Below are positions 20,861 to 35,334 of a DNA stretch of 43,912 nt, piece after piece. The DNA lies in contig JBJHCF010000044.1 in the NCBI GenBank assembly GCA_050506795.1, forward strand, positions 1 through 43,912, in the 5' to 3' direction. Position numbers and translations under genes: made by a program. Every line of letters begins with the position of its first letter. The first letter of the stretch is position 1. The notes under the pieces were generated by a model. It did not search any database. It was not told the origin of the DNA and was given only the letters and a program-made list of their open reading frames with translations. The DNA is from Opitutia bacterium. Lineage in GTDB: Bacteria; Verrucomicrobiota; Verrucomicrobiia; Opitutales; T3Sed10-336.

Positions 20861-22723
20861 TCAAGCCTCCGCCATACGGCGGAATGACGGATTGCCTGCC
20901 AGCAGTTCGTCAAAGGACCCGGTGTCGATGATTCGTCCGTTGTCCATAAAAACGATGATATCGGCGCGGCGAATGGTCGTGAGACGGTGGGCGATCATCA
21001 GGATGGTCTTGCGGCCCGACAGCGATTCCACCGCTTCCACAATGGCGCGTTCGGTTTCCGAGTCCAATGCGCTGGTGGCCTCGTCAAGCACGATCACCTC
21101 AGGGTCGTGATACAGGGCGCGGGCGATTCCCATACGCTGACGTTGACCCCCGCTCAGCCGAATGCCTCGTTGGCCGACCTCGGTTTCGTAACCCGAAGGC
21201 AATTCCTTCTCGATGAAGTCGTGCAGGTTTGCCAGACGCGCGGCCATTTGTACGCGTTCGTCCGAGATCTGTTTGACCGGTATCCCGAAGGCGATGTTGC
21301 GCCGCACGCTGTCGTCGGTCAGGTAAATCTGCTGCGGGACGTACCCGCAGTTGCGCTGCCAATCGGCCTGGTTCTCCTCGGTGATCAGGACTCCGTCGAC
21401 CAGCATGCGGCCGGTTTTTGGGTAAAGCAGGCCCAAAAGAATATCGGCCAGGGTGGTTTTTCCCGCGCCGGAGCGTCCGCAGAGCCCGATTCGGGTCAGG
21501 GCGGGAATCCGCAGGGAGATTCCGTGCAAGGCGGATTTTTCGCTGTTGGGGTAGGCGTAGGAGAGGTCCTGGATTTCGATAGCGTTTCGCAGGGAGAGGC
21601 GAGGATAATCTTTCTCGCGCGGGTCGCCGCTGGGTATTCCCGGGAGTGCTTTCCGGGGGTTTTGCAACAGGCGCGCGCATTCGTCGTGAACGGTATCGAC
21701 GCTCTTGGTCAGGTACCGCAGCCGGCTGAAACTGCCGTATAAGCCCTGGATTGCCGGAATCAAGCGGTAACCGGCCACGGCGAACAGGCCGAGCACGGGC
21801 AGGGCGCCGGCCACGCCATCGTGTTGCCGGATCAGCAACAAGGCGACGCCCACCATGCCGGCGAAAGCGAACGTCTCGACCAGGTATTTGGGCAGTGCCG
21901 AGTAAAGCGCCGCCCGCTCCTGAAATCGAAAGAATCGGTGGGAGGGTTTCTCGAAGGCGGAAATGAAATTTTCCTCACGGCGCAGGACTTTGAGCTCCTT
22001 GATGGTATCGAAGGCCTCGCTTACCGTTTTGAAGCGAAGGCGGTCCGATTCCGAGCGTTTTTCGGCCGCCCGCATCAGACGAGGCCGCAAGTAAACGTAG
22101 ATTGCGGTGTAGGTCGCACCAAAGAAAACGCCGGCTCCGAGCGCCACCCAGGGATTTACCACAATCAGGAGAACACTGAGGCCGGTAATGACCAGAACCT
22201 GAGTGATCAGCCCCACCGAGGTGCCCAGGAAGCCGTGACTCACCCTTCCCACTTCGGAAAATATATTGCGCAGAAATTCCGAGGTATTTCGGTTCAGATA
22301 GAAAGTGTAGGGGCGGCGAAGGTAACTTTTCATTAGTAGGGTGGAGAGGTAGGTGTCCAGTTTGGCGCTAAAACGAGCGCCCAGGATACTGTGAATAACC
22401 CCCAGAAGATTCGCCAGCACCACCGCCGCGATAACGACGCCTCCCAGGATCACCAACAGCATGGCGTCATCAATCGGACCGGTGATGGAGGTCAGAATAG
22501 CGAAGATTCGGCTTTCCTGCATACCCGCAGGGTCGGAGATGGCCTGCAGAAAAGGCAGGATCGAACCGACCATGGCGAGTTGGGCCAGGGCGTTGATGTT
22601 CATCAACACAAAAAGGCCCCCGACACCCCATCGATAGGGCCGGGGGAGCAGTGACCAACATTTTTTGACGGCTTCCAGCATGGCGCTCGGACCAGCATTG
22701 GCGGGTAAATCAGGCAGCGTCAA
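20861..22723 (-). CDS. ABC exporter, fused permease/ATPase (PglK/HepA-like, no C39 peptidase domain)
   Basis: Six TM segments; GRSGAGKTT; VPQ Q-loop; LSGGQRQR; DEATSALD; IAHRL; start TTG 22723 or ATG 22681. Confidence 0.93.
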   Translation of the reverse strand: MTLPDLPANAGPSAMLEAVKKCWSLLPRPYRWGVGGLFVLMNINALAQLAMVGSILPFLQAISDPAGMQESRIFAILTSITGPIDDAMLLVILGGVVIAAVVLANLLGVIHSILGARFSAKLDTYLSTLLMKSYLRRPYTFYLNRNTSEFLRNIFSEVGRVSHGFLGTSVGLITQVLVITGLSVLLIVVNPWVALGAGVFFGATYTAIYVYLRPRLMRAAEKRSESDRLRFKTVSEAFDTIKELKVLRREENFISAFEKPSHRFFRFQERAALYSALPKYLVETFAFAGMVGVALLLIRQHDGVAGALPVLGLFAVAGYRLIPAIQGLYGSFSRLRYLTKSVDTVHDECARLLQNPRKALPGIPSGDPREKDYPRLSLRNAIEIQDLSYAYPNSEKSALHGISLRIPALTRIGLCGRSGAGKTTLADILLGLLYPKTGRMLVDGVLITEENQADWQRNCGYVPQQIYLTDDSVRRNIAFGIPVKQISDERVQMAARLANLHDFIEKELPSGYETEVGQRGIRLSGGQRQRMGIARALYHDPEVIVLDEATSALDSETERAIVEAVESLSGRKTILMIAHRLTTIRRADIIVFMDNGRIIDTGSFDELLAGNPSFRRMAEA

Positions 22724-22975
22724 GCAGGCCGCATGGTGAGCCGGTCAAAACGAACCTCCCCAAAAATATTCCCGGATCAGGGTCTTTTTGTTTGCGAGCT
22801 TTGACCCGCATTTCTTAGCGCGGAATCTCAAATTCGGAATTTTCGATCTGAAATGTTTTTTTGATGCGGTCTTCAGAGGCCAAATGGAAAAGCTGTGCTG
22901 CCCGGAATGGCTTGGGGCAGCAATCCTTGACAGAAATGTCGCAACCGGAGTAGGAAGTTGGCTCTCGAATTCTCG

Positions 22976-23287
22976 ATGAAATCCACCGAAACATTTTCCG
23001 ACGACTGCGTCGTTGTGGCCGTAAACGATCAACTGACTTGTGACCTGGCCGGGGAGGCGGCGGTATTACACCTGCCTGACGGGGTGTATTATGGTCTGAA
23101 CGAAACCGGGGCGTTTCTGTGGGAACGCTTGCGCAGTCCGGTGCGGGTGGCCGACCTGCGCGCCGCTTTACTGGCGGAGTTCGAGGTGACGGAGACGGTG
23201 GCCGATCGCGACCTGAACGCGCTCTTGAACGAGCTTACGAAGGCCGGATTGATTGAGGTGCGCCGGGCAAACTCGGCTGAATCATAG
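22976..23287 (+). CDS. PqqD-family RiPP recognition element (lasso B1-like RRE)
   Basis: GEAAVLHLPDGVYYGLNETGAFLWERL...LLAEFEV...DLNALLNELTKAGLI; about 103 aa. Confidence 0.92.
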   Translation: MKSTETFSDDCVVVAVNDQLTCDLAGEAAVLHLPDGVYYGLNETGAFLWERLRSPVRVADLRAALLAEFEVTETVADRDLNALLNELTKAGLIEVRRANSAES

Positions 23288-23439
23288 GGGTTTCCCTTAT
23301 GTTCGGTGTGGGTTTTTTCGGTGTTCTTACGAGGGAAGCCCTGATTGTTATGTTGGCTTAGGCATGCTAAGCTGTGGTCATAGTTTTAATCAACGAGTCT
23401 CTGTTTGAATACAGTTTTCGTTACGGAGGAAAAAAACCA

Positions 23440-23613
23440 ATGAAAGAAGGAACCATGGAAAAAGTAACCACACCTCGGCCTTATGTCGCTCCGAAGCTTT
23501 CAAGCTACGGAAGTGTTTCGGACCTGACAATGGGTCGCAGCGAGGCATACAACCTGCCTCAATACACGGGCCGGAATGGCGCCTACGACGATCCGAGATA
23601 CAACGTTTCCTAA
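23440..23613 (+). CDS. Lasso-type RiPP precursor peptide (57 aa)
   Basis: GGAGGA RBS at 23425-30; leader YVAPKL (YxxPxL) and G-x5-T with Thr at -2 before Gly; core GRSEAYNLPQYTGRNGAYDDPRYNVS; lies between RRE and kinase. Confidence 0.88.
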   Translation: MKEGTMEKVTTPRPYVAPKLSSYGSVSDLTMGRSEAYNLPQYTGRNGAYDDPRYNVS

Positions 23614-23702
23614 ATCGGACCGTTGAGGACCGTTGATTCAAGGCTCCAGCGTTCAATATAGGAACAGAGCCACTCATCGGAAACCCATTCTACCTAGTCT
23701 AC

Positions 23703-23743
23703 AAAGCAACCCGGCGTCCATTGGATGCCGGGTTGCTTTTTTT
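23703..23743 (+). terminator. Rho-independent terminator after the precursor gene
   Basis: AAAGCAACCCGGCGTCC-ATT-GGATGCCGGGTTGCTTT followed by a T tract. Confidence 0.88.
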
Positions 23744-23882
23744 GTATCCACGGCGCTTGGGGGCCGGGGTTAAGTGGGTTCCCATCGTCTTGACAGTTTC
23801 AAAGAGGCTGGCATAACACGATTTGTCGCGGCACGTGGGTGGACAGCGACGAACTCAACGTGTGTGTAATCATAGGATCGAG

Positions 23883-24794
23883 ATGCCCAGGTACAGATTT
23901 GCCGGAATTCCGGTTAACTCCGAACTCGAACTTCCCTTGCCGGTCGATCGGGCTTCCGATGCCGATGACGGAATTTCCATTGAATTGGGACCGCCGATCA
24001 GCGAACGGGAACTTCAGGAGAGGAGGGGGTGGAATTGGGAGTCTGCCGATTCCGCCCACTTTGGTTATTCCGGGCTCGGGCAGGCCTGGGTACGTGATGG
24101 GCGCCAGGTTCTCCTCCGACCGATGAGCGGTTTGCAGGCGGAAGCCGAATGGCGCGGTCTGTTGATTCCCTGTTTTGCGGCTCTGTTTCATCAGAGGGGA
24201 GTCCTTTCGCTCCATGCAAGCGCGGTTTGCGGTCAGCGCGGGGCCGTGGGGGTGGTGGGCCATCGGGGCGCCGGGAAATCGACTCTGACGGCACAATTGG
24301 TTAGCGGCGGCATGCAATTTCTTTCCGACGACCTCCTGATTACCAGTTGGGTGGCCGAACCGGGGTACGTCGTCGCCCATCCCGGATTTTCGATCATCAA
24401 GCTTTGGGAGGACGCCCTCGAAGCTGCCGGAAAGGGATTTTCCCGAATCGGCCGCTTATACCCCGACGCCTCCAAGGACGGGTTTTCTCCCGATGAGGCG
24501 AAATTCGCGCGCGAGCCGGTTCCGCTCCGTTTTCTGGTGGTCCTGACGGAAGGGGACGAGGTAAAAATAGAGACCCTTTCCAGGGCGGACGCCGTGGCTG
24601 AGCTCCTGATCCACACCTACGGCGTGGCCGTTTTCGAACACCGGCCGCTGCCGATCCACTTCCGGCAATGCGGGGAACTGGCTGCGCGTGTTCCGGTGAT
24701 GCGCCTGGTCCGGCCGAAGAACTTCGACTGCGTGGAAGAGGTTCGCGCCACAATCGAGAAGGCGTTCGCCGATACCGTAGCCGGCGACCAATAG
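23883..24794 (+). CDS. HPr kinase-like kinase (lasso peptide kinase PadeK/ThcoK-like)
   Basis: LSLHASAV, Walker A GHRGAGKST, LSDD (His-Lys-Asp-Asp set), IKLWED; ATG 23883 preferred. Confidence 0.85.
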   Translation: MPRYRFAGIPVNSELELPLPVDRASDADDGISIELGPPISERELQERRGWNWESADSAHFGYSGLGQAWVRDGRQVLLRPMSGLQAEAEWRGLLIPCFAALFHQRGVLSLHASAVCGQRGAVGVVGHRGAGKSTLTAQLVSGGMQFLSDDLLITSWVAEPGYVVAHPGFSIIKLWEDALEAAGKGFSRIGRLYPDASKDGFSPDEAKFAREPVPLRFLVVLTEGDEVKIETLSRADAVAELLIHTYGVAVFEHRPLPIHFRQCGELAARVPVMRLVRPKNFDCVEEVRATIEKAFADTVAGDQ

Positions 24795-24950
24795 AAGCAC
24801 GCGGATTAAGTTTTCCGGGGCTTATGTGGTGGATTCCCTTAGCGTAAGTCCAGGGTGAAACCCTCATTTCTATAGTGAAACCCTTATTCTCAATGAGGTT
24901 AAGGGAGGGTATTCTGATGTCTCGTTCAATTTTAAAAGGGAGAGTTTAAT

Positions 24951-26798
24951 ATGTGTGGAATTGTAGGATATGTGGGCAGGGCGCAAGCGGGTCCGATTCT
25001 TCTCGACGGATTAAAACGTCTGGAATACCGGGGCTATGATTCGGCCGGATTGACGGTGCATCAGAAGAATCGTTTGGCGTGTGTCAAAGCGACCGGTCCG
25101 GTGACCAACCTGGTCAAGGAAACGGGTCGGCGGGATGTTGGCGGCTCGGTTGGCATCAGCCACACCCGCTGGGCGACCCATGGAGGGGTGACCACCGCGA
25201 ATACCCACCCGCACCTGAGCAGAGACGGCACACTGGCTTTGGTGCATAACGGCGTCATCGAGAATTTCGAGAGCATCAAGAGGTTTTTGCTTGGCAAAGA
25301 CTTCACCTTTTCCTCGGAGACCGATTCCGAGGTCCTGGTGAATCTCATCAGTTATCACTACGAAAAGGAAAGGTGCGAGCCGGAGAAGCGTTTCTTCGAG
25401 AGCGTCCGGAAGGCCCTTCTGCACGTGGAAGGAACGTATGGAATCGCGGTCATGTGTGTCCATAATCCGAAAGAGATCATCGGAGCCCGCTTGGGATCCC
25501 CGCTAATTTTGGGGGTTGGCGACGGGGAGTTTCTGCTGGCCAGCGACGTTTCCGCAGTGGTTTCCCGGACCCATAAGGTGGTGTATCTCAAGGATAACGA
25601 GGTGGTGTCTCTCTCCTCCGAAGGGTTTTCGATTTCCACGATCAACCGGGAGGAAGTGGATCCCATCGTCAACGAGGTCGACTGGGCGATCGAGGATTCC
25701 GAACTCGGTATTCACCAGCACTACATGGAAAAGGAGATTTTCGAACAGCCGCGTTCCTTGGAGAACTCGATGCGCGGCCGTTTCACCGACGACGACAGTT
25801 CGGCGAATTTCGGCGGTTTGAATCTTTCGCCCCAGGAATGGCGCGGAGTGGACCGCATTCTCTTCTGCGGCTGCGGAACCGCCTGGCACGCCTGCCTGGT
25901 GGCGGAGTATCTGATTGAAAGGTTTGCCCGTGTTCCGGTGGAGGTGGAGTACGCTTCAGAGTTTCGCTACCGGAACGCGCCGTTGGACAAGAACACCCTG
26001 TTTTTCGCCATCAGTCAGTCCGGAGAAACCATCGATACGCTGGCGGCCATGCGGGAGGCCAAACGCAAAGGTTACCGAACCCTGGCGATCACCAACGTCG
26101 TGGGTTCCACCATCGCGCGTGAAGCGGATGGCGGGATCTACCAGCACGTCGGCCCCGAGATCGGGGTGGCATCCACCAAGGCGTTCACTTCCCAAATCCT
26201 TTTGGCCGCCATGGTGGCGCTTTACCTGGGCCGTCTGAGAGACGTCAGCTACACGGACGGTCGCACGATCGCCAGGGCCCTCCGGCAACTCCCCGAACTG
26301 GCCGAGCGGGTCCTGGAACAGAGCGATGCGATCCGTGAGATCGCGCGTCGTTACGTCGATTACGAGGATATGCTTTTCCTGGGGCGTCAGGCCATGTTCC
26401 CGATTGCCCTGGAGGGAGCGCTGAAGCTAAAGGAGATTTCCTACATCCACGCCGAGGGGTATCCGGCGGCGGAAATGAAACATGGTCCGATCGCCCTGAT
26501 CAGCGAAAAATGTCCCAGTGTGTTTCTTTCGCCGCAATGCGAGACCTTTCACAAGGTCGTTTCCAACATGCAGGAAATCAAGGCGCGCAAAGGCAAGGTG
26601 ATCGCTGTGGCTTCCGACAGTTGCGAGTTTCCGGACGGCCTGGTGGACGACCTGATTCGAGTGCCCGATGCGCATGAAGCCCTTCAGCCGATTCTCTTCA
26701 CTTTGCCGGTTCAGTTGCTCAGCTACTACATTGCCGTCGAGCGCGGCTGCAATGTCGACAAACCGCGAAACCTGGCCAAGTCGGTGACAGTGGAATAA
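24951..26798 (+). CDS. glmS: Glutamine--fructose-6-phosphate transaminase
   Basis: MCGIVG, RLEYRGYDSAG, HTRWATHG, SQSGET, VASTKAFTSQ, EGALKLKEISY, DKPRNLAKSVTVE. Confidence 0.98.
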   Translation: MCGIVGYVGRAQAGPILLDGLKRLEYRGYDSAGLTVHQKNRLACVKATGPVTNLVKETGRRDVGGSVGISHTRWATHGGVTTANTHPHLSRDGTLALVHNGVIENFESIKRFLLGKDFTFSSETDSEVLVNLISYHYEKERCEPEKRFFESVRKALLHVEGTYGIAVMCVHNPKEIIGARLGSPLILGVGDGEFLLASDVSAVVSRTHKVVYLKDNEVVSLSSEGFSISTINREEVDPIVNEVDWAIEDSELGIHQHYMEKEIFEQPRSLENSMRGRFTDDDSSANFGGLNLSPQEWRGVDRILFCGCGTAWHACLVAEYLIERFARVPVEVEYASEFRYRNAPLDKNTLFFAISQSGETIDTLAAMREAKRKGYRTLAITNVVGSTIAREADGGIYQHVGPEIGVASTKAFTSQILLAAMVALYLGRLRDVSYTDGRTIARALRQLPELAERVLEQSDAIREIARRYVDYEDMLFLGRQAMFPIALEGALKLKEISYIHAEGYPAAEMKHGPIALISEKCPSVFLSPQCETFHKVVSNMQEIKARKGKVIAVASDSCEFPDGLVDDLIRVPDAHEALQPILFTLPVQLLSYYIAVERGCNVDKPRNLAKSVTVE

Positions 26799-26967
26799 GC
26801 CGAATGCCGGTGGATCCGAACGATTTTACAGGTTGACTTCGCCTTCCGGGATTCGTTCAATCCGGGGTTTTTCATGGCATGGAAGCGTATCCGGCGGGAG
26901 CTTGCCGGAAGGCTTTCTCCAGGCATCAGATGGATGACTGCCGTGCCCTGTCGAAAACCATTCGCCT

Positions 26968-28116
26968 ATGAACGTTCTTAAATCGACCCTGCTGGCTGCG
27001 GCCCTGTGCCTGACCGCGTTTCAATCCAGTCCCAATCGCGCTTTGGCGGCTTTCGATCTTCCCCATGGAGGCTTATTCATCAACGCCTACGGAGAGGCGG
27101 CCTACACCAGCAATCTTTTTCTGACTTCCCGGGAGGAGTCGGATGTGGTGTTAACGGTTCTTCCATCGCTCGAATACCTGATGGCCGAGGGATTGGTTCA
27201 TTTCGAGGCGCACGCCGGCGTGGAATTTCTTCGCTTTATCGACTGGAGTGATCTGGATACGGAAAACCTCAAGTCGAGTTTCCTTCTGTCGTTTCCGCAC
27301 GAAGATCGAGGGAGGATGTTCTTTTTCCAGGTAAACGGCGGCTACAATGAAATCACCTCCGCAACCGCGGTTGACGGAGCTCTCGTGCAGGAGGACGAAA
27401 TTTCCGTGGGCGCTGATCTGGAGTATTTTTTCTCCGATCGGACGTCGGCCCGGTTCGGAGCTTCCCACCGGGATCGAGATGCGCGTACCGCGGGCTTCGC
27501 CTCGCGGAGCGTGACCATGCTGCGCCTCGGGCCGGCACATGAGTTCTCCGAACGCCTGACCCTTTCCGGTGCCGTTCGCTATCGCAAGACCGATGTTTCG
27601 GGAGTCAGACCGGCTCTGGATTCCGAGGATTATTCGCTCATCGTGGGCGCGGAAGGTCGCCTCTTGGCCTTGCTGGTCGGCGAGGTGGCGATCGGTCTGC
27701 AGCGGCGGACTTTCGACGGCGATTTCGACGACCAGACCGAACCTTATGCGTTTGCCGGGCTCACCTGGGAGATGGATGAGATGACCGAAATCAATCTTTC
27801 GCTGACAAGCGACATGCAGACTTCGGCTTCGAATCTTTCCGGCCAGACGATCCTGGTGTCCCTGGAAGGTGTTCGCCGCATCGGGGAGCAGTTGCGGCTT
27901 AATCTGGGCGCCGGCTACGAGGATTCCTCTTATGTACAAGCCAGTGGGAACGAGCGTAACGACGATGAATGGTCCGTGTTTGGAGGGGCTCGTTACAGTC
28001 TGAACCGGCATGTTTCCCTCAACTGGGACGTCTCTTTCGCCCAGCGAAATTCAGATTTCTCGGCATCCAATTACGACGTCGTGCGCACCGGAGTTTCGGT
28101 GGACGCGCGGTTTTGA
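26968..28116 (+). CDS. Exopolysaccharide-locus outer-membrane beta-barrel protein
   Basis: Signal peptide, YTSNLF barrel start, terminal DARF; directly upstream of Wza/Wzc. Confidence 0.8.
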   Translation: MNVLKSTLLAAALCLTAFQSSPNRALAAFDLPHGGLFINAYGEAAYTSNLFLTSREESDVVLTVLPSLEYLMAEGLVHFEAHAGVEFLRFIDWSDLDTENLKSSFLLSFPHEDRGRMFFFQVNGGYNEITSATAVDGALVQEDEISVGADLEYFFSDRTSARFGASHRDRDARTAGFASRSVTMLRLGPAHEFSERLTLSGAVRYRKTDVSGVRPALDSEDYSLIVGAEGRLLALLVGEVAIGLQRRTFDGDFDDQTEPYAFAGLTWEMDEMTEINLSLTSDMQTSASNLSGQTILVSLEGVRRIGEQLRLNLGAGYEDSSYVQASGNERNDDEWSVFGGARYSLNRHVSLNWDVSFAQRNSDFSASNYDVVRTGVSVDARF

Positions 28117-28120
28117 ACTG

Positions 28121-28801
28121 ATGTCCCGGGCGATTATGAATGGATTTCTCGGAGTTTTGGCCCGGATGTCCTTGACTGCGTTGATCTGCTGCGGAGTGTT
28201 TATTCCGGCTTTGGCGGGACAGGAAACCGGGGATCTTCGTTCGGATCCGACGACCATGGAATCCGAAACCGCCTCGACGCCGTACCTTCTCAGTCCTTTT
28301 GACACCGTTAGAATCTCGGTCTACGGGCAACCGGACCTGGATACTCGGCAACGGATTACGGATGCGGGAGTGGTTTCGCTTCCCCTGTTGGGAAATGTCA
28401 GGGTCGGTGGGTTGGCGGTGCGCGAGGCTCAGGAGAGGATCCGGATCGCGTTTATCGAAGAGGAACTCCTCCGCAACCCGGTGATTTCTTTGGCGATCGA
28501 GGAATTTTCACCCAAACAGATCACCGTTCTCGGACAGGTCACCCGACCGGGCGCGATAACGCTTCCCAGCGGCTCCAACGATATCGCCATTGAATCCGCG
28601 ATCGCTATGGCCGGAGGCTTTACCGGGACCGCGCGTCGAAGTCGGGTCCGGGTCACCCGTTTCGATGATGAAGCCGGGCGTGAAAGAGTTTTTCAGGTCG
28701 ACCTGGATGAAATTCTGGCCGATAGCGACGGAGATTTTACCACCGGCGGGTTCCGGGTGTTTCCCGACGACATCGTGTTTGTGCCCCAGCGATTGTTTTA
28801 G
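28121..28801 (+). CDS. wza: Polysaccharide export protein (Wza/Poly_export + SLBB)
   Basis: YLLSPFDTVRISVYGQPDL, GVVSLPLLG, VLGQVTRPG, AIAMAGGFT, DDIVFVPQRLF. Confidence 0.88.
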   Translation: MSRAIMNGFLGVLARMSLTALICCGVFIPALAGQETGDLRSDPTTMESETASTPYLLSPFDTVRISVYGQPDLDTRQRITDAGVVSLPLLGNVRVGGLAVREAQERIRIAFIEEELLRNPVISLAIEEFSPKQITVLGQVTRPGAITLPSGSNDIAIESAIAMAGGFTGTARRSRVRVTRFDDEAGRERVFQVDLDEILADSDGDFTTGGFRVFPDDIVFVPQRLF

Positions 28802-28915
28802 GCGATACGCTTGGGCCGATTTCGGCTGATCCGGAGGTTTTTCTACTTTGATTTCCGGTTTGCGATCCTTCCGGCTTGCCTCCCATCGCGGGAAACTCTC
28901 CCATTCATTTTGTTC

Positions 28916-31135
28916 ATGTTCGAGCCATCGCATAACCAAGCTTCAGATCCGCTGCACGAAAACGGCGGCGAGTTTCTTCGGCTGGGCGACATTGTACTGA
29001 TTCTAAGACGTCGGGGCTGGATCGGGCTATTGGCGGGTCTTCTGGTTGGAGGGGGGGCGATGCTGGGAATCATGCAACAGACGCCCCGGTACGAAGCGTC
29101 GTCAAGTCTGGTTGTGGAGCTCAATCCGGATCGAGTGGTGAATGTGGAGGAGGTGGTCGACATCGGTGTGGAAGGCGGGCTTCTGGCCGCTGCCATGAAT
29201 ACCCACCTGGAACGCCTGCGCAGCCGCCGAATGGCGGAAACGGTGCTGGAGCAATTGAGCCCGGCCCAAAGGGAACAGGTTCGCCGGCCGTTTCTGAGAG
29301 CCAATCAGCATTCCGACGAGCAGGTTGTCCTATCTCCCGGGATGATTCGCGATATCATCGAAATCCGCTGGTTACGCAACTCCCAGGTTCTGCAAATCAG
29401 CGCCCGTCATCCCGATCCGGAAGTAACGCGCCTTTTATCGAACCTCTACGCCCAGAATTATATCGGGTTTCAATCCTCGCTTCGCGACAGTTCGACCGCG
29501 TCGGCGGTTGCTTTCTTGGAAGGCGAGGTCGCCGATATTCATCGGCGACTGGAGGCCGGGGAGCGGGAATTGGCGGAGTATCGGCGGCTTCACAATCTCG
29601 TGGCGCTTGAAGACAATCGGAATATTATCACAGACGAAATGCGCCAGATAAACGCGGCGCTTACCGAACAGCGAGTCAAGGCGATCGAACTTCGTACCCT
29701 CCTGCAGCAGATCGATGAGGCCGGGGACGATCTGGACCGATTGCTGGAGATTTCTACCGTCGCCCGCCCAACGATTATACAGGAACAGGTTTCGCAGCTC
29801 CGGGAGGTGGAGAACGAGCGCGACGAATTGTCCGAAACTTTCCTTCGTCGCCATCCCAGGATGGTGGCCAATGCCTCGCGGCAGGCTTCGGTTGAATCGA
29901 CATTGCGGCGGTCCATCGAGCGCAGAATCGCTGAAATCCGCGGAGACTATGCCGCGGTTCAAACCAGTATCGCCGGCTTGGAGACGGAATTGAGGGAGGC
30001 CGAGGCGCGGTCGCTGGAACTGGATCGATTGGCCATTGACCTGAATACGCTTCGCCGCGGGGTCGAGGCCGAGCGGCGCACCTACGAACAGTTGGCGGCG
30101 CGGCTCAATGAGACCATGGTGACAAGTCAGATCGATATCACCAACCTGCGTATCCTGGATCTGGCGGATACGCCCAGGGAACCGTTTTCTCCGAGTTTGC
30201 TTTTGGCCGGATTGCTGGGAACCGCGCTTTTTGGCATCGTTCTGGTCGGTCTGCCTGTGGGGATCGAGCTGATGGATAAGCGACTGCAGACCTACGCCGG
30301 AATCGAGAACTACATCGGCAAATCGGTGCTGGGCGATGTCAGGTTCCTCCCCGGGAAGTCGAGCAGTCAGATTATGACCGGGGTGATGGCGGAGGAAGAA
30401 GCTCTTCTGGAGTCATTTCGTGCGATTTACAGCAGTCTGCTCCTGCACCGGCTTCCGGAAGCCCCATTGACCCTGATCGTGACCTCCTCGATTCCGGAGG
30501 AGGGTAAAACCTCCATCGCCGGAAACCTGGCTCAAATTTTCGGACGCCACGGAAGGAAAACTTTGCTTATCGACGCTGATCTTCGGCGGCCGTCGCTACA
30601 CCGGGGATTCAACCTCACCAATGACCAGGGCGGCCTCGTTCCCTGGATTCAGAGCGAGGAAGGTTTGCCGCCAGTGGGCGTGACCGTGGAAAACTTTGCC
30701 CCGCTTGCCGTGGCGCAACTGGGGTCGAATACCTGGCTGCTTCGTTCCGGGGGATCGACCAAGTCGCCCACCGAGATTTTCGCCAATACCAAGTTCGATC
30801 AGATTATTTCGAGGATCAAGACGGAGTTTGAGGTCGTGATCCTGGATACTCCGCCGGTGGGGGTGTTTCCCGACGCCACCTTGATTGGAGACTACTGCGA
30901 TGGCACGGTGTTTGTCGCCCGCCAGCGAAAGGTCACCAAGGCCCGGGCTCGCAATTCGGTTCTGCGTATGGACCGGACCGCGGCGCCGGTTCTCGGCGTG
31001 GTTTTCAACGCTGTCCGCGGTCATTCGGCCACCAGTGGTGACGGTTATGGATACGGTGAATCCTACCATTACGGCTACGGGAAAGACGTGGAGAAATACC
31101 GAAAGCAATACGCGCAGTCGGAATCAAGGGATTGA
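28916..31135 (+). CDS. wzc: Polysaccharide co-polymerase / tyrosine autokinase (Wzc/GumC)
   Basis: Two TMs flanking a coiled coil; TSSIPEEGKT, IDADLRRP, ILDTPP; Tyr-rich tail GYGYGESYHYGYG. Confidence 0.93.
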   Translation: MFEPSHNQASDPLHENGGEFLRLGDIVLILRRRGWIGLLAGLLVGGGAMLGIMQQTPRYEASSSLVVELNPDRVVNVEEVVDIGVEGGLLAAAMNTHLERLRSRRMAETVLEQLSPAQREQVRRPFLRANQHSDEQVVLSPGMIRDIIEIRWLRNSQVLQISARHPDPEVTRLLSNLYAQNYIGFQSSLRDSSTASAVAFLEGEVADIHRRLEAGERELAEYRRLHNLVALEDNRNIITDEMRQINAALTEQRVKAIELRTLLQQIDEAGDDLDRLLEISTVARPTIIQEQVSQLREVENERDELSETFLRRHPRMVANASRQASVESTLRRSIERRIAEIRGDYAAVQTSIAGLETELREAEARSLELDRLAIDLNTLRRGVEAERRTYEQLAARLNETMVTSQIDITNLRILDLADTPREPFSPSLLLAGLLGTALFGIVLVGLPVGIELMDKRLQTYAGIENYIGKSVLGDVRFLPGKSSSQIMTGVMAEEEALLESFRAIYSSLLLHRLPEAPLTLIVTSSIPEEGKTSIAGNLAQIFGRHGRKTLLIDADLRRPSLHRGFNLTNDQGGLVPWIQSEEGLPPVGVTVENFAPLAVAQLGSNTWLLRSGGSTKSPTEIFANTKFDQIISRIKTEFEVVILDTPPVGVFPDATLIGDYCDGTVFVARQRKVTKARARNSVLRMDRTAAPVLGVVFNAVRGHSATSGDGYGYGESYHYGYGKDVEKYRKQYAQSESRD

Positions 31136-32626: not shown

Positions 32627-33181
32627 TCAGGATGGGCTGGCGCCGCCTGAGACCACTCCGCCACCTCCTCCGCCGGTGGCGCCCCGTGCAGACGATCCAC
32701 CGCCTACCGGCGACGAGCGTAATGGGGCTTGGGTGGCGCGGGGCGCGGTTTCGACCGTTTCTTCGGTGGAAATCATCGGTCTCCCGGCCTCCGCACGACT
32801 GCGGGCCAGTTGCTGGCCGGCCTCAAAGGCGTTGCTGATTGGGCCGACTGGCTCAGTGGAAGCGACTACGAACTCTTCGAATCCGGTCATGAGGATCGGC
32901 AAATGTTCTCTCGGCCCTTCCTGAAGGCAGGTCTCCAGGGCCAGCCCGAAAGCGGTGGCGATTTGGATATCGGAAAGGCCGGCATTTCGGCCGAAATCAA
33001 CCACGGTCTGCACCGCTTCGTTCGATTCAGACATCACAAAGTAGGCGGCCAGGCCGTCCACGCTGGTTGTCCCGCCGTTGGCCGGAGTTTGCGCCTGTGT
33101 CGAGACGACGGCGGATAATCCGAGCAGAACGGCTATCAGAAAGGCTTTTGGCATAACGCTGGTATTGAACGGTTGAGACAT
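32627..33181 (-). CDS. Secreted hypothetical protein with Gly/Ser-rich tail ending ASPS
   Basis: Signal peptide (AFLIAVLLGLSAVVSTQA), helical body, tail GGGSSARGATGGGGGGVVSGGASPS; start 33181 or 33154. Confidence 0.7.
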   Translation of the reverse strand: MSQPFNTSVMPKAFLIAVLLGLSAVVSTQAQTPANGGTTSVDGLAAYFVMSESNEAVQTVVDFGRNAGLSDIQIATAFGLALETCLQEGPREHLPILMTGFEEFVVASTEPVGPISNAFEAGQQLARSRAEAGRPMISTEETVETAPRATQAPLRSSPVGGGSSARGATGGGGGGVVSGGASPS

Positions 33182-33207
33182 GGCGATGTCAATCGCCAAC
33201 ATTAGAC

Positions 33208-33630
33208 CTATTCCGCCAGCAATTCCTGGACCTTGGACTTGAGCGTTTCGGCTCTTACCGGTTTGGGCAGAAAATGGGTATTCCGACTGAGTTTCTCCTC
33301 CAGGATGACGATGTCCTCGGTGTAACCGGAAAGGAGCAGGATCTTGGTGCCGGGGAACGCATCGCGGAAGCGTGAAGCGAGTTCGAGTCCCCCCACATCG
33401 GGCATCACCAGGTCGGACACCAGCAGATCGATCCGGCCGGCGTCGTCTCCTTGGGCGTGGTCGATGGCTTCCTGGCCGTTGGTCGTTTCGATCACATCAT
33501 AACCCGCTTTGTTCAGAATCTCGGAGAAGAGCTTCAAGGCGGCGGGCTCGTCTTCTACCAAGAGGATAGTCTTCTTAGTCTCGTTTTTCTCTGACTTGGA
33601 ATCCGATTTGGTGGAAGGGCGGGAATTCAT
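33208..33630 (-). CDS. Single-domain response regulator (REC)
   Basis: ILLVEDE, LLVSDLVMP, LLSGY, FLPKP. Confidence 0.9.
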   Translation of the reverse strand: MNSRPSTKSDSKSEKNETKKTILLVEDEPAALKLFSEILNKAGYDVIETTNGQEAIDHAQGDDAGRIDLLVSDLVMPDVGGLELASRFRDAFPGTKILLLSGYTEDIVILEEKLSRNTHFLPKPVRAETLKSKVQELLAE

Positions 33631-33725
33631 AACTCGAAAAGTAAGATTCCTGTGGAAGACGGCAAGTTCATTCCGTTGGAATGGTTTCGGAGAGGAGGCG
33701 CCGGACGATTCGCGTTTGATTGGAG

Positions 33726-34412
33726 TCAAGCGGAGGCGTTGTTATGAAAAACTCCCTCCCGCTGTACCCAGTGAACGGCGAACTGAATCAACTCCGTGGA
33801 GTGCTTGAGGTTGAGTTTTTCTTTTATCCTGAACCGGTGGGCTTCCACCGTTTTCAGACGGATATTCATTATCGCCGCGATCTCCCGGTTGTTTTTGCCG
33901 TTTCCGATCAACTGGATTACCTGTAACTCCCGATTGGTAAGTTTGCGAATCGGGTTTCTGATTGGCGGGGTCGGGCTGCTGCTGTCCAGTTGCGAGAAAA
34001 GCAGGCTCTGCAGGCGGCTGCTCACATAGAATTCCCCGCCAAGTACCTTGCGTATCGCTTTGAGGATCTGACCGGGATCCTCGGTTTTCATAAGATACCC
34101 TCTGGCTCCCGATTGCAACGCCCGCTCCGCGTAAAAAGACTCGTCATGCATGGAGAACACCAGAACCGGAGTGCCGGTGAAACGCTGCTGCAGTTGCTTC
34201 AAGGCTTCGAAACCATCGGAGCTTTTTAAGTGGATATCCAGGATAAAGAGGTCGGGCGGCCCCGCGCGGAGGCTGTCGGGCAGTGCATCGGTGGATTCCG
34301 CGCTGCCTGAGACAACGAGGTCCCCCGCTTTTTCTATAAGGGCGGTTAACCCCGCCACTAAAACGGGATGGTCATCGATAATAAAGATTTGGGCTGGGTG
34401 AGATTTCTTCAC
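33726..34412 (-). CDS. NarL/LuxR-family response regulator
   Basis: IIDDHP, ILDIHL, LTNRELQVIQLIGNG...KTVEAHRFRIKEKL. Confidence 0.93.
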   Translation of the reverse strand: MKKSHPAQIFIIDDHPVLVAGLTALIEKAGDLVVSGSAESTDALPDSLRAGPPDLFILDIHLKSSDGFEALKQLQQRFTGTPVLVFSMHDESFYAERALQSGARGYLMKTEDPGQILKAIRKVLGGEFYVSSRLQSLLFSQLDSSSPTPPIRNPIRKLTNRELQVIQLIGNGKNNREIAAIMNIRLKTVEAHRFRIKEKLNLKHSTELIQFAVHWVQREGVFHNNASA

Positions 34413-34509
34413 AGCGGTGTTTTAGATCGTGAAGGATACAATAAAATCGGTGGCGGACGCAATAAGGTCTGACCCTACGATAATCTTACTTTTAAACCCC
34501 TGCTGCGTA

Positions 34510-34597
34510 TAAGGGAAAACCGTATCCGGAGTATGGAAAACCGGATAGATTGACGGAGGTGAACCCAGAGAAAGACCCTGAATTGCCGGAAATCCCC
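34510..34597. promoter_or_regulatory. Phased direct repeats upstream of a NarL gene (putative regulator boxes)
   Basis: GGAAAACCG at 34514 and 34535 (21-bp spacing), related GGTGAACCC at 34558 and GGAAATCCC at 34588. Confidence 0.5.
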
Positions 34598-34668
34598 GCA
34601 ATTCACTTGCCAAAGGAGCGTCGCCTCGAGCGGGCGCCGCCCCGATTTCTTCCCTGAACGCGGCCTGA

Positions 34669-35334
34669 TTAACGATTTACCGCGTTCTCCTGTTCCACCC
34701 ACTGAACGCAAAACTGAACCAGCTCGGTCGCGTTTTTCAGGTCCAGCTTTTCTTTGAGGTGTGCGCGGTGGGATTCGATTGTCTTGATGCTCACGTTGAG
34801 GGTTTTAGCGATCTCCCGGGTGGTGCGTCCGCGTCCGATCAATTGCACCACCTCCAGTTCCCGATCGCTCAATCGATCAATTGGAGAGGTTTCCGTGGGG
34901 GAGTAACCCCGGACGATCTGCTGCAGCATTTGGCTGCCAACCCGCTCGCTGACGTAGATCTCGCCTTTGAGTATTTTGCGGATGGCCTGCATGACGCGTT
35001 CGGCGGCTTCCTGCTTCATGACATACGCCTTGGCGCCGGCCCGAAGCACGCGCTGAGCATAAATATTCTCGTCGTGCATCGACAGAACCAGAATCGGCAG
35101 GTCGGGGTAAAGCACCTTCACGTTCTTGATTAACTCAATTCCGCTGCTTCCGCGAAGCGACATGTCCGCGATCACCAGATCAGGGGAGGTCTTGTCAATG
35201 CCGGTGAGGGCGCCAGGGGCGTCTTCCGCTTCGCCGCAGACGGTAAGGTCATCCTCCCCGTTAACCAGATCCGTCAGGCCGCGCCGCATGAGGGCGTGGT
35301 CGTCTACGATGAATATCTTGGTTTTCCGTTTCAA
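34669..35334 (-). CDS. NarL/LuxR-family response regulator
   Basis: IVDDHA, IADMSL, LSDRELEVVQLIGRG...KTIESHRAHLKEKL; TTG start with AGGAG RBS. Confidence 0.93.
   Translation of the reverse strand: MKRKTKIFIVDDHALMRRGLTDLVNGEDDLTVCGEAEDAPGALTGIDKTSPDLVIADMSLRGSSGIELIKNVKVLYPDLPILVLSMHDENIYAQRVLRAGAKAYVMKQEAAERVMQAIRKILKGEIYVSERVGSQMLQQIVRGYSPTETSPIDRLSDRELEVVQLIGRGRTTREIAKTLNVSIKTIESHRAHLKEKLDLKNATELVQFCVQWVEQENAVNR

Follow-up and report, generated by a model that had tools for sequence, protein, structure and literature searches.

A lasso-type locus without a cyclase in an Opitutales bacterium, a probable source of a linear phosphopeptide

The window analysed here is the whole of contig C44 (JBJHCF010000044.1, 43,912 nucleotides) of an Opitutia bacterium of the order Opitutales (assembly GCA_050506795.1; genome G000, 4.94 Mb in 82 contigs, 97.8% complete), and between positions 20861 and 24794 it carries a locus for a peptide that is made by ribosomes and modified after its translation (RiPP). 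The locus consists of an ABC exporter and, divergent to it, a discrete RiPP recognition element (RRE), a precursor peptide with a lasso-type leader (A1) and an HPr-kinase-like peptide kinase (K1). It is one piece of a peptide-making system that is scattered over three places of the genome. We consider it reasonably probable that A1 undergoes RRE-guided phosphorylation of a Ser at its C-terminal end, loses its leader to a lasso-type leader peptidase (B2) encoded on another contig, and is exported as a linear peptide. Genes were called from a listing of open reading frames (ORFs) and from Pfam and NCBIfam scans of the window, and the family is represented in our collection by 12 species-level genomes, G000 among them.

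The window precursor most likely cannot form a lasso ring by the rule on core positions 7-9. Precursor A1 (57 aa, 23440-23613, forward strand; MKEGTMEKVTTPRPYVAPKLSSYGSVSDLTMGRSEAYNLPQYTGRNGAYDDPRYNVS) preferably starts at the ATG at 23440, with GGAGG 8 nt upstream, and is predicted to consist of a leader of residues 1-31 (23440-23532; YVAPKLSSYGSVSDLT) and a core of residues 32-57 (23533-23610). The leader is of the lasso type that an earlier note on this DNA, written from the letters alone, had recognized: it passes the lasso_leader_L3 model NF033521 (21.6 bits, cut-off 19) and has the motifs YxxPxL and G-x5-T and, if the predicted cleavage is right, Thr at -2; the C-terminal Ser of which the note spoke is also there. 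Lasso peptides have a 7-9-residue macrolactam ring closed onto an Asp or Glu side chain (PMC8498205). Five A1 sequences, those of the window, G003 (MTAMNTSSITSTKASRSYSSPRLSNYGSVSSLTLSNGNGKGKGKKKGKGKKNGLSF), G007 (MNTSPYMNRRSREYSAPELVHHGAVSALTHKGKNGKRNGRSNGKKNGKKNGISF), G009 (MKNTKQQSLRPYTPPKLSSYGNVSKLTLELRYKMAGNGNNGSVS) and G010 (MNISNVTTKHSSGSYIAPKLSSYGTVSSLTLTARGNGNGRGNGRGKGNGRGKGNNNISF), were compared with four precursors of the A2 type, which belongs to a second locus described below; cores were numbered from an inferred cut one residue after the invariant Leu-Thr, so that each core begins two residues after this pair. Y15, P18, L20, G24, V26, L29 and T30 are invariant in the alignment of all nine A1 and A2 precursors, and the cores, unlike the leaders, are hypervariable. 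Asp or Glu at core positions 7-9 occurs in none of the five A1 cores (positions 7-10 of the window core are N, L, P and Q), and three of them (G003, G007 and G010) have no acidic residue anywhere; all four A2-type precursors have Asp at core position 9. Thus, A1 fails the ring rule and by this measure is not lasso-capable. Common to all A1 cores is a Ser, as the last residue in two and as the next to last, before Phe, in three, and the precursor adjoins the kinase in each of the five loci that have one.

Related loci show that the same module exists where the assembly holds no cyclase. G003, G007 and G010 have the exporter divergent to a run of, in this order, RRE, B2, A1 and kinase. Only A1 and the kinase stand at that place in G009, whose genes for RRE, B2 and exporter belong to one operon that also holds cyclase 1, cyclase 2, A2, a fused RRE and kinase 2. 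When G003, G007, G009, G010 and G011 were searched with the lasso-cyclase model, two cyclases were recovered only in G009 (311 and 261 bits). G003, G007, G010 and G011 (87%, 97%, 82% and 82% complete, respectively) gave a single match each, of 157-182 bits, and these sole matches are orthologues of the housekeeping AsnB of G000, at 66-87% identity. The locus of G011 looks degraded, with a truncated RRE and an intact kinase frame (by ORF call, with a flagged TGA at the end of the match), and family and locus searches found neither B2 nor a precursor there. Directly after its kinase stands a 926-aa fusion of a sugar-phosphate nucleotidyltransferase and a galactokinase-like GHMP kinase (L020:6433-9213), and G011 is the sole relative with a nucleotidyltransferase nearby. 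Both cyclases are kept in G006, where no A1 or K1 was found. The earlier note had weighed a split cluster against a non-lasso linear phosphopeptide system, and for A1 the latter is the better reading, given cores without Asp or Glu at positions 7-9 and a module that occurs in cyclase-free genomes.

The proposal that K1 would phosphorylate a Ser at the C-terminal end of A1 is reasonable, a Ser being last or next to last in all five A1 sequences. K1 has 303 aa (23883-24794, forward strand) when read from the ATG common to its orthologues, which is its likeliest start, the longest ORF starting at 23823, and its P-loop GAGKST and its DD motif are invariant among the orthologues. Its homologues bear the PF07475 Hpr_kinase_C domain. 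An AlphaFold2 model (mean predicted local distance difference test, pLDDT, 91.1) matched in Foldseek the HprK/P structures 3tqf, 1kkm and 1kkl (TM-score on target 0.57-0.61) and PEPCK. In phosphorylated lasso systems, HPr-kinase homologues act on the precursor while it is linear, at the C-terminal Ser (PMC8498205) or, for Bsf of Bradymonas, at Ser3 with help from B1 (Duan et al. 2023; PMC10368454). The window-type kinase is found in six of the 12 family genomes, with G000 counted, at 43-56% identity. The nearest public relatives of the kinase locus are Opitutia/Opitutales metagenome-assembled genomes (MAGs), and the nearest kinase relatives outside Opitutales belong to lasso clusters of Sphingomonadaceae (31-35% identity). 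An Asn-synthase-like gene lies in the fetched flank of 25 of 35 loci with kinase homologues outside Opitutales (24-35% identity), several of the other 10 being very short contigs, and in none of the five public Opitutales kinase loci. A cyclase-less locus of a Bacteroidetes MAG (L041:3988-10453) combines a TMEM260-like glycosyltransferase, a polysaccharide deacetylase, an HprK-like kinase, a sulfotransferase, PqqD and B2, and no Asn-synthase-like gene was matched in the 16.8 kb fetched around it.

The biochemical steps, like the sharing of parts discussed below, are what we infer from the observed gene content, synteny, motifs, cyclase absence in relatives and kinase fold. The RRE would bind the YxxPxL motif of the A1 leader, and K1, aided by the RRE, would then phosphorylate a Ser of the linear precursor. 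The likeliest site would be the Ser found at the final or penultimate position of all the orthologues, and Ser3 of the window core would be the alternative. A lone B2 cysteine peptidase, encoded on contig C4, would cut one residue beyond the invariant Leu-Thr, and the MsbA-like ABC transporter of the window would export the product. Since no ring would be made, this product would be a linear phosphopeptide. A freshwater metatranscriptome (run X2) offers a weak hint that A1 is expressed: five of its contigs were placed on a 2.1-kb stretch, all within 23397-23661, that is, on the precursor gene, and their variants inside the A1 coding sequence are three synonymous and one non-synonymous (P52S). 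The DNA runs X3 and X4, both soda-lake metagenomes, gave short pieces only, of 90-99% likeness.

The leader peptidase missing from the window is encoded elsewhere in the genome. The genome-wide search for a lasso cyclase and for Transglut_core3 that the earlier note had proposed found one B2 gene in G000, on contig C4 (PF13471, 84 bits; NF033537, 95.8 bits, cut-off 33), and three Asn-synthase-like genes, one on C15 and two in tandem on C12. The C4 gene is solitary, flanked by genes for a P-type ATPase and for a histidine kinase, and it keeps Cys83 and His117, which are invariant among B2 orthologues. In the congeneric genome G001, a B2 that is 92% identical lies beside the same histidine kinase (85% identity), so the lone placement is stable and no assembly artefact. 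Exactly one B2 is present in each of G000, G003, G007, G009 and G010. The congeneric G002 (92% complete, no kinase match) has a B2 on its contig C281 (L100) that is 65% identical to the lone B2. A complex prediction for the window RRE and the lone B2, made with alignments of five rows each, gave a score of 0.02 and a mark of 0.32 and is uninformative either way. By distances to the contig ends, the C4 locus is at least ~95 kb and the C12 locus at least ~46 kb away from the window locus.

The partner locus on C12 (~61327-70971; L006:9328-18971) looks like a true lasso cluster, Asp9 being kept in all four A2 precursors. The Asn-synthase-like gene of C15 is the housekeeping AsnB (TIGR01536, 405 bits), and the two cyclase-like genes of C12 match NF033535 best, at 315 and 319 bits, which is under the cut-off of 525, yet above their own AsnB scores. 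These paralogues are ~40% identical and overlap by 4 nt if the second starts at the Met of MSGICG; two cyclases are also kept in G006 and G009. Downstream of them are precursor A2 (MKSENLKSKTYTAPLLKKWGTVSDLTLTGGTNPGDDGKGGSVGHSKGQ; 19.2 bits on the lasso-leader model), a second kinase, K2, that is 27% identical to K1, and a 1013-aa membrane protein, a fusion of major facilitator superfamily and spermidine-synthase-like parts seen only in this genus. A 400-aa protein with a C-terminal, lasso-B1-like PqqD domain (L006:13572-14774) has orthologues in G001, G006 and G009, and its first ~300 residues gave no Pfam, NCBIfam or PDB-sequence match. A low-confidence model of this fused RRE protein (pLDDT 60.6, 4-row alignment) matches TfuB1 at its C-terminus (TM-score 0.84 on target) and, weakly, type-I phosphoribosyltransferases in its middle part (XGPRT, TM-score ~0.56). 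If the modelled fold is true, the joining of an RRE to a phosphoribosyltransferase-like domain would make for a RiPP tailoring enzyme of an undescribed kind, and a literature search for such a fusion found none. The C12 locus has no B2, discrete RRE or exporter of its own. The RRE, B2 and exporter are probably shared between the window locus and this lasso pathway with its two cyclases, A2, fused RRE and K2. A third, unrelated RRE-bearing gene of G000 lies on contig C8 (~32829-35180, reverse strand; L080:4830-7181) and encodes 783 aa with an ATP-grasp domain of the tubulin-tyrosine-ligase family (186.6 bits) and a PqqD/RRE domain (32.4 bits).

Scanning the whole genome by regular expression for precursors with the same leader returned A1 and A2 only. 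Immediately ahead of the invariant Gly of their G-x5-T leader motif, five of five A1 precursors have Tyr or His and four of four A2 precursors have Trp. On sequence grounds, this difference could sort A1 and A2 between the kinases, RREs or cyclases, and it may be likened to the Y/W switch in the YxxP motif that separates the RREs of linear polyphosphorylated peptides (LPPs) from those of paeninodin (PMC13381572). A metagenome scan with the kinase alignment gave 18 loci, of which three close ones repeat the G009 and G010 loci, and no additional A1 sequence was gained. Our tentative picture of the whole system is that one B2, the discrete RRE and the ABC pump serve two precursor families with a common leader, A2 being made into a lasso peptide by dedicated cyclases and A1 staying linear and being phosphorylated by a kinase of its own, and that lineages which lost the cyclases keep the linear branch.

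All the genes listed for the window by the earlier note are present by ORF and family scans. The MsbA-like ABC exporter (620 aa, 20861-22723, reverse strand) has the Pfam domains ABC_membrane and ABC_tran, and family scans found no C39 or other peptidase domain in it. Its orthologues in G003, G007 and G010 (52-58% identity) are divergent beside the RRE, and that of G009 (66% identity) lies inside the lasso operon. The intergenic region between exporter and RRE (22724-22975) presumably holds the promoters of both, judging from the gene arrangement, and a search for sigma-70 promoters in it gave no convincing match. The RRE, of the lasso B1/PqqD family (~103 aa, 22976-23287, forward strand; longest ORF from 22958), scores 65.5 bits on PF05402 PqqD, its best NCBIfam match being lasso_PqqD_Bac, under the cut-off (54.8 bits against 80), and it is 50-67% identical to its orthologues in one comparison, another giving 71% identity for the G009 copy. 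Between A1 and the kinase, a terminator-like hairpin with a 17-bp stem, a 3-nt loop (23703-23739) and a T-run (23703-23746 in all, forward strand) is as strong as had been claimed: its minimum free energy is -32.8 kcal/mol (z = -7.02), and none of 200 shuffled sequences was as stable. This hairpin is peculiar to the genome of the window, and its relatives have precursor-kinase spacings of 7-50 bp. An Rfam scan of 22600-25000 gave no match at E <= 0.1. Searches also agree with the claim that the 44 kb hold neither cyclase nor B2: tblastn of B2 and the two cyclases against the whole window gave no match and no B2 remnant, and every B2 or Asn-synthase-like match of the genome-wide family searches lies on contigs other than C44. 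Because the window is an entire contig, absence from these 44 kb is the strongest statement that the assembly allows. The neighbours downstream, which are outside the peptide system, are glmS, a BBP2_2 barrel, Wza and Wzc (24951-31135, forward strand; Pfam). If each is read as its longest ORF, the barrel (26968-28116) and Wza (28010-28801) share 107 nt, and the Wza domain begins at residue 88, so that the true Wza start is probably further downstream.

Several points weigh against a linear phosphopeptide. The four cyclase-free genomes are MAGs of 82-97% completeness, and in any one of them a cyclase could lie on an unassembled piece. G000 has two cyclases, unlike G003, G007 and G010, and the window A1 core begins with Gly, a typical lasso position 1, so an unorthodox cyclisation in trans is possible. 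With their G009 orthologues sitting in a lasso operon, the RRE and exporter of G000 could serve mainly A2. K1 is under every curated family cut-off, with a weak best match (HprK_rel_A, 33 bits, cut-off 200), and searching PDB sequences with the profile of the kinase gave only P-loop matches and weak PEPCK matches, so that a fold search was needed to place the kinase. Only five distinct A1 sequences exist, from a single family of 12 species-level genomes, and they are mutually related and thus not independent counts. The RNA evidence consists of contigs of one study, in which DNA carry-over is possible, and the product is a predicted one.

A rival reading is that A1 is the substrate of an ordinary split lasso cluster, cyclised in trans by one of the C12 enzymes (one cyclase for each precursor) into a paeninodin-like phosphorylated lasso peptide. 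Two tandem cyclase paralogues (~40% identical) would suit two precursors with an identical leader architecture, one of which has a core starting with Gly; moreover, RRE, B2 and exporter share an operon with both cyclases in G009, and Asn-synthase-like genes accompany most of the kinase homologues outside Opitutales (25 of 35). We nonetheless regard this outcome as unlikely, as neither the window A1 nor that of G009, the only other A1 genome with cyclases, has Asp or Glu at core positions 7-9, three orthologous cores lack any acidic residue, the module persists where assemblies hold no cyclase, and G006 keeps both cyclases though no A1 or K1 was found in it. The split cluster with B2 and cyclase elsewhere that the earlier note had envisaged is real for the genome, with B2 on C4, the cyclases on C12 and the joint operon of G009, but probably not for A1 as a lasso substrate; correspondingly, a B2 and cyclase pair elsewhere that would yield an ordinary lasso peptide was found for A2 only. 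The absence of B2 from the window also raises the prospect that the locus is a decaying remnant, left nonfunctional by the loss of B2 from the place between RRE and precursor that it has in G003, G007 and G010. Decay in the family is real in G011, with its truncated RRE and with neither B2 nor a precursor found, and the distribution of the type-1 kinase is patchy (six of 12 genomes). Against this, neither reading frame nor key motifs are damaged in any of the four window ORFs, a good Shine-Dalgarno sequence precedes A1, an intact B2 is present on C4 in a placement conserved in G001, and the RNA-library contigs cover the precursor with mostly synonymous variants; we hold a remnant to be improbable.

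A further proposal, compatible with a linear phosphopeptide, concerns its use: the peptide could be a primer, carrier or signal for exopolysaccharide export, a tie to cell-surface glycans that the earlier note had raised. The kinase gene lies 157 bp upstream of the glmS-barrel-Wza-Wzc genes on the same strand, the best NCBIfam matches of the exporter are polysaccharide or lipid flippases of the HepA, PglK and MsbA type (every one under its cut-off), and the LPP and paeninodin clusters of Bacilli are often found in capsule loci (PMC13381572). The neighbourhood comparison gave no conservation in support of this tie, since none of the four related loci adjoins glmS, the barrel, Wza or Wzc. Unrelated housekeeping genes flank them, those for transketolase, TrmD, PFK, M3 peptidase and GAPDH/PGK/TIM. 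The locus has no glycosyl- or nucleotidyl-transferase, and a weak terminator-like site separates the kinase from glmS. We therefore attach little probability to a glycan-linked role.

Among published systems the LPPs come closest, and the window module may be read as their independent counterpart, which would depend on B2 and have parts in common with a true lasso pathway. LPPs are encoded by lppA-K-B-S-D-N in Paenibacillus alginolyticus (Popov et al., Nat Commun 2026; PMC13381572), where the products are described as linear, kinase-modified, with polyphosphate on Ser3, and exported by an MsbA-like pump. According to the same article, LPP clusters are often located in capsule loci, co-occur with paeninodin-type lasso clusters and are confined to Bacillota. 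As far as that article describes them, both systems have an HprK-like kinase and an MsbA-like exporter with no cyclase in the module, both occur in genomes that also hold a kinase-bearing lasso cluster, and both can lie beside polysaccharide genes, which in our set is so in G000 only. The LPP leader peptidase is an archaeal-type signal peptidase (SpI-like), whereas the window system has the lasso B2 (Transglut_core3) on C4; the archaeal-type signal peptidase model TIGR02228 had no matches in G000, and control genomes did match. LPP clusters have an NTP transferase, and no NTP-transferase domain is found in the window locus by Pfam. The LPP leader consensus is YxxPxVLxHQxIxFETxxS, in contrast to the lasso type of the window leader (G-x5-T, Thr at -2). 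The window RRE is nearer to the lasso B1 protein PbaB1 than to LppB by profile scores: a profile of five orthologues gave 61.7 bits for PbaB1 (9x90), 40.6 for TbiB1, 33.7 for TfuB1 and 25.4 for LppB (9x8z). The host phyla also differ, Verrucomicrobiota here and Bacillota for LPPs, and the parts of the window system are dispersed and apparently shared with a lasso pathway, unlike those of LPPs.

Phosphorylated lasso peptides, i.e., those of the paeninodin type, those of the SyanK type of Sphingobium (Zhu et al. 2016, as cited in PMC8498205) and Bsf of Bradymonas (PMC10368454), resemble the window system in their HPr-kinase homologue, split B1/B2 and ABC exporter. They differ in that the A1 core lacks a ring-forming Asp or Glu and orthologous modules lack a cyclase, and in that the window locus has no nucleotidyl- or sulfo-transferase. 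Likewise, canonical class II lasso clusters (A, B1, B2, C and D) share with it the leader motifs and lasso-type B1, B2 and D, but the window locus is without C and B2, and its A1 core does not satisfy the ring rule. In open-access full text, our searches turned up no work on lasso-type clusters in Opitutales or Verrucomicrobiota, and none on cyclase-less HprK systems besides PMC13381572.

The first description of lasso-related RiPPs that are linear and phosphorylated dates from May 2026 and reports them as confined to Bacillota (PMC13381572). Our findings suggest that a leader-guided kinase acting without a ring arose separately in Verrucomicrobiota, here together with a lasso B2 peptidase. 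Cluster-based genome-mining tools would take the window genes for a lasso cluster with parts missing and those of C12 for one that lacks its peptidase, which is a warning for surveys of such systems. One bacterial family offers both a combined state, with lasso and linear branches and shared parts, and a reduced state with the linear branch only, and thereby makes testable how leaders are sorted between two pathways, what purpose two tandem cyclases serve, and what role a C-terminal phospho-Ser plays on a short and very basic peptide. If the linear reading of A1 is true, polycationic peptides built of Asn-Gly-Lys/Arg repeats and phosphorylated on a Ser at their C-terminal end would be a new product type, and the shared system of this family would offer a snapshot of linear phosphopeptide RiPPs arising from lasso pathways, independently of the LPPs of Bacillota.

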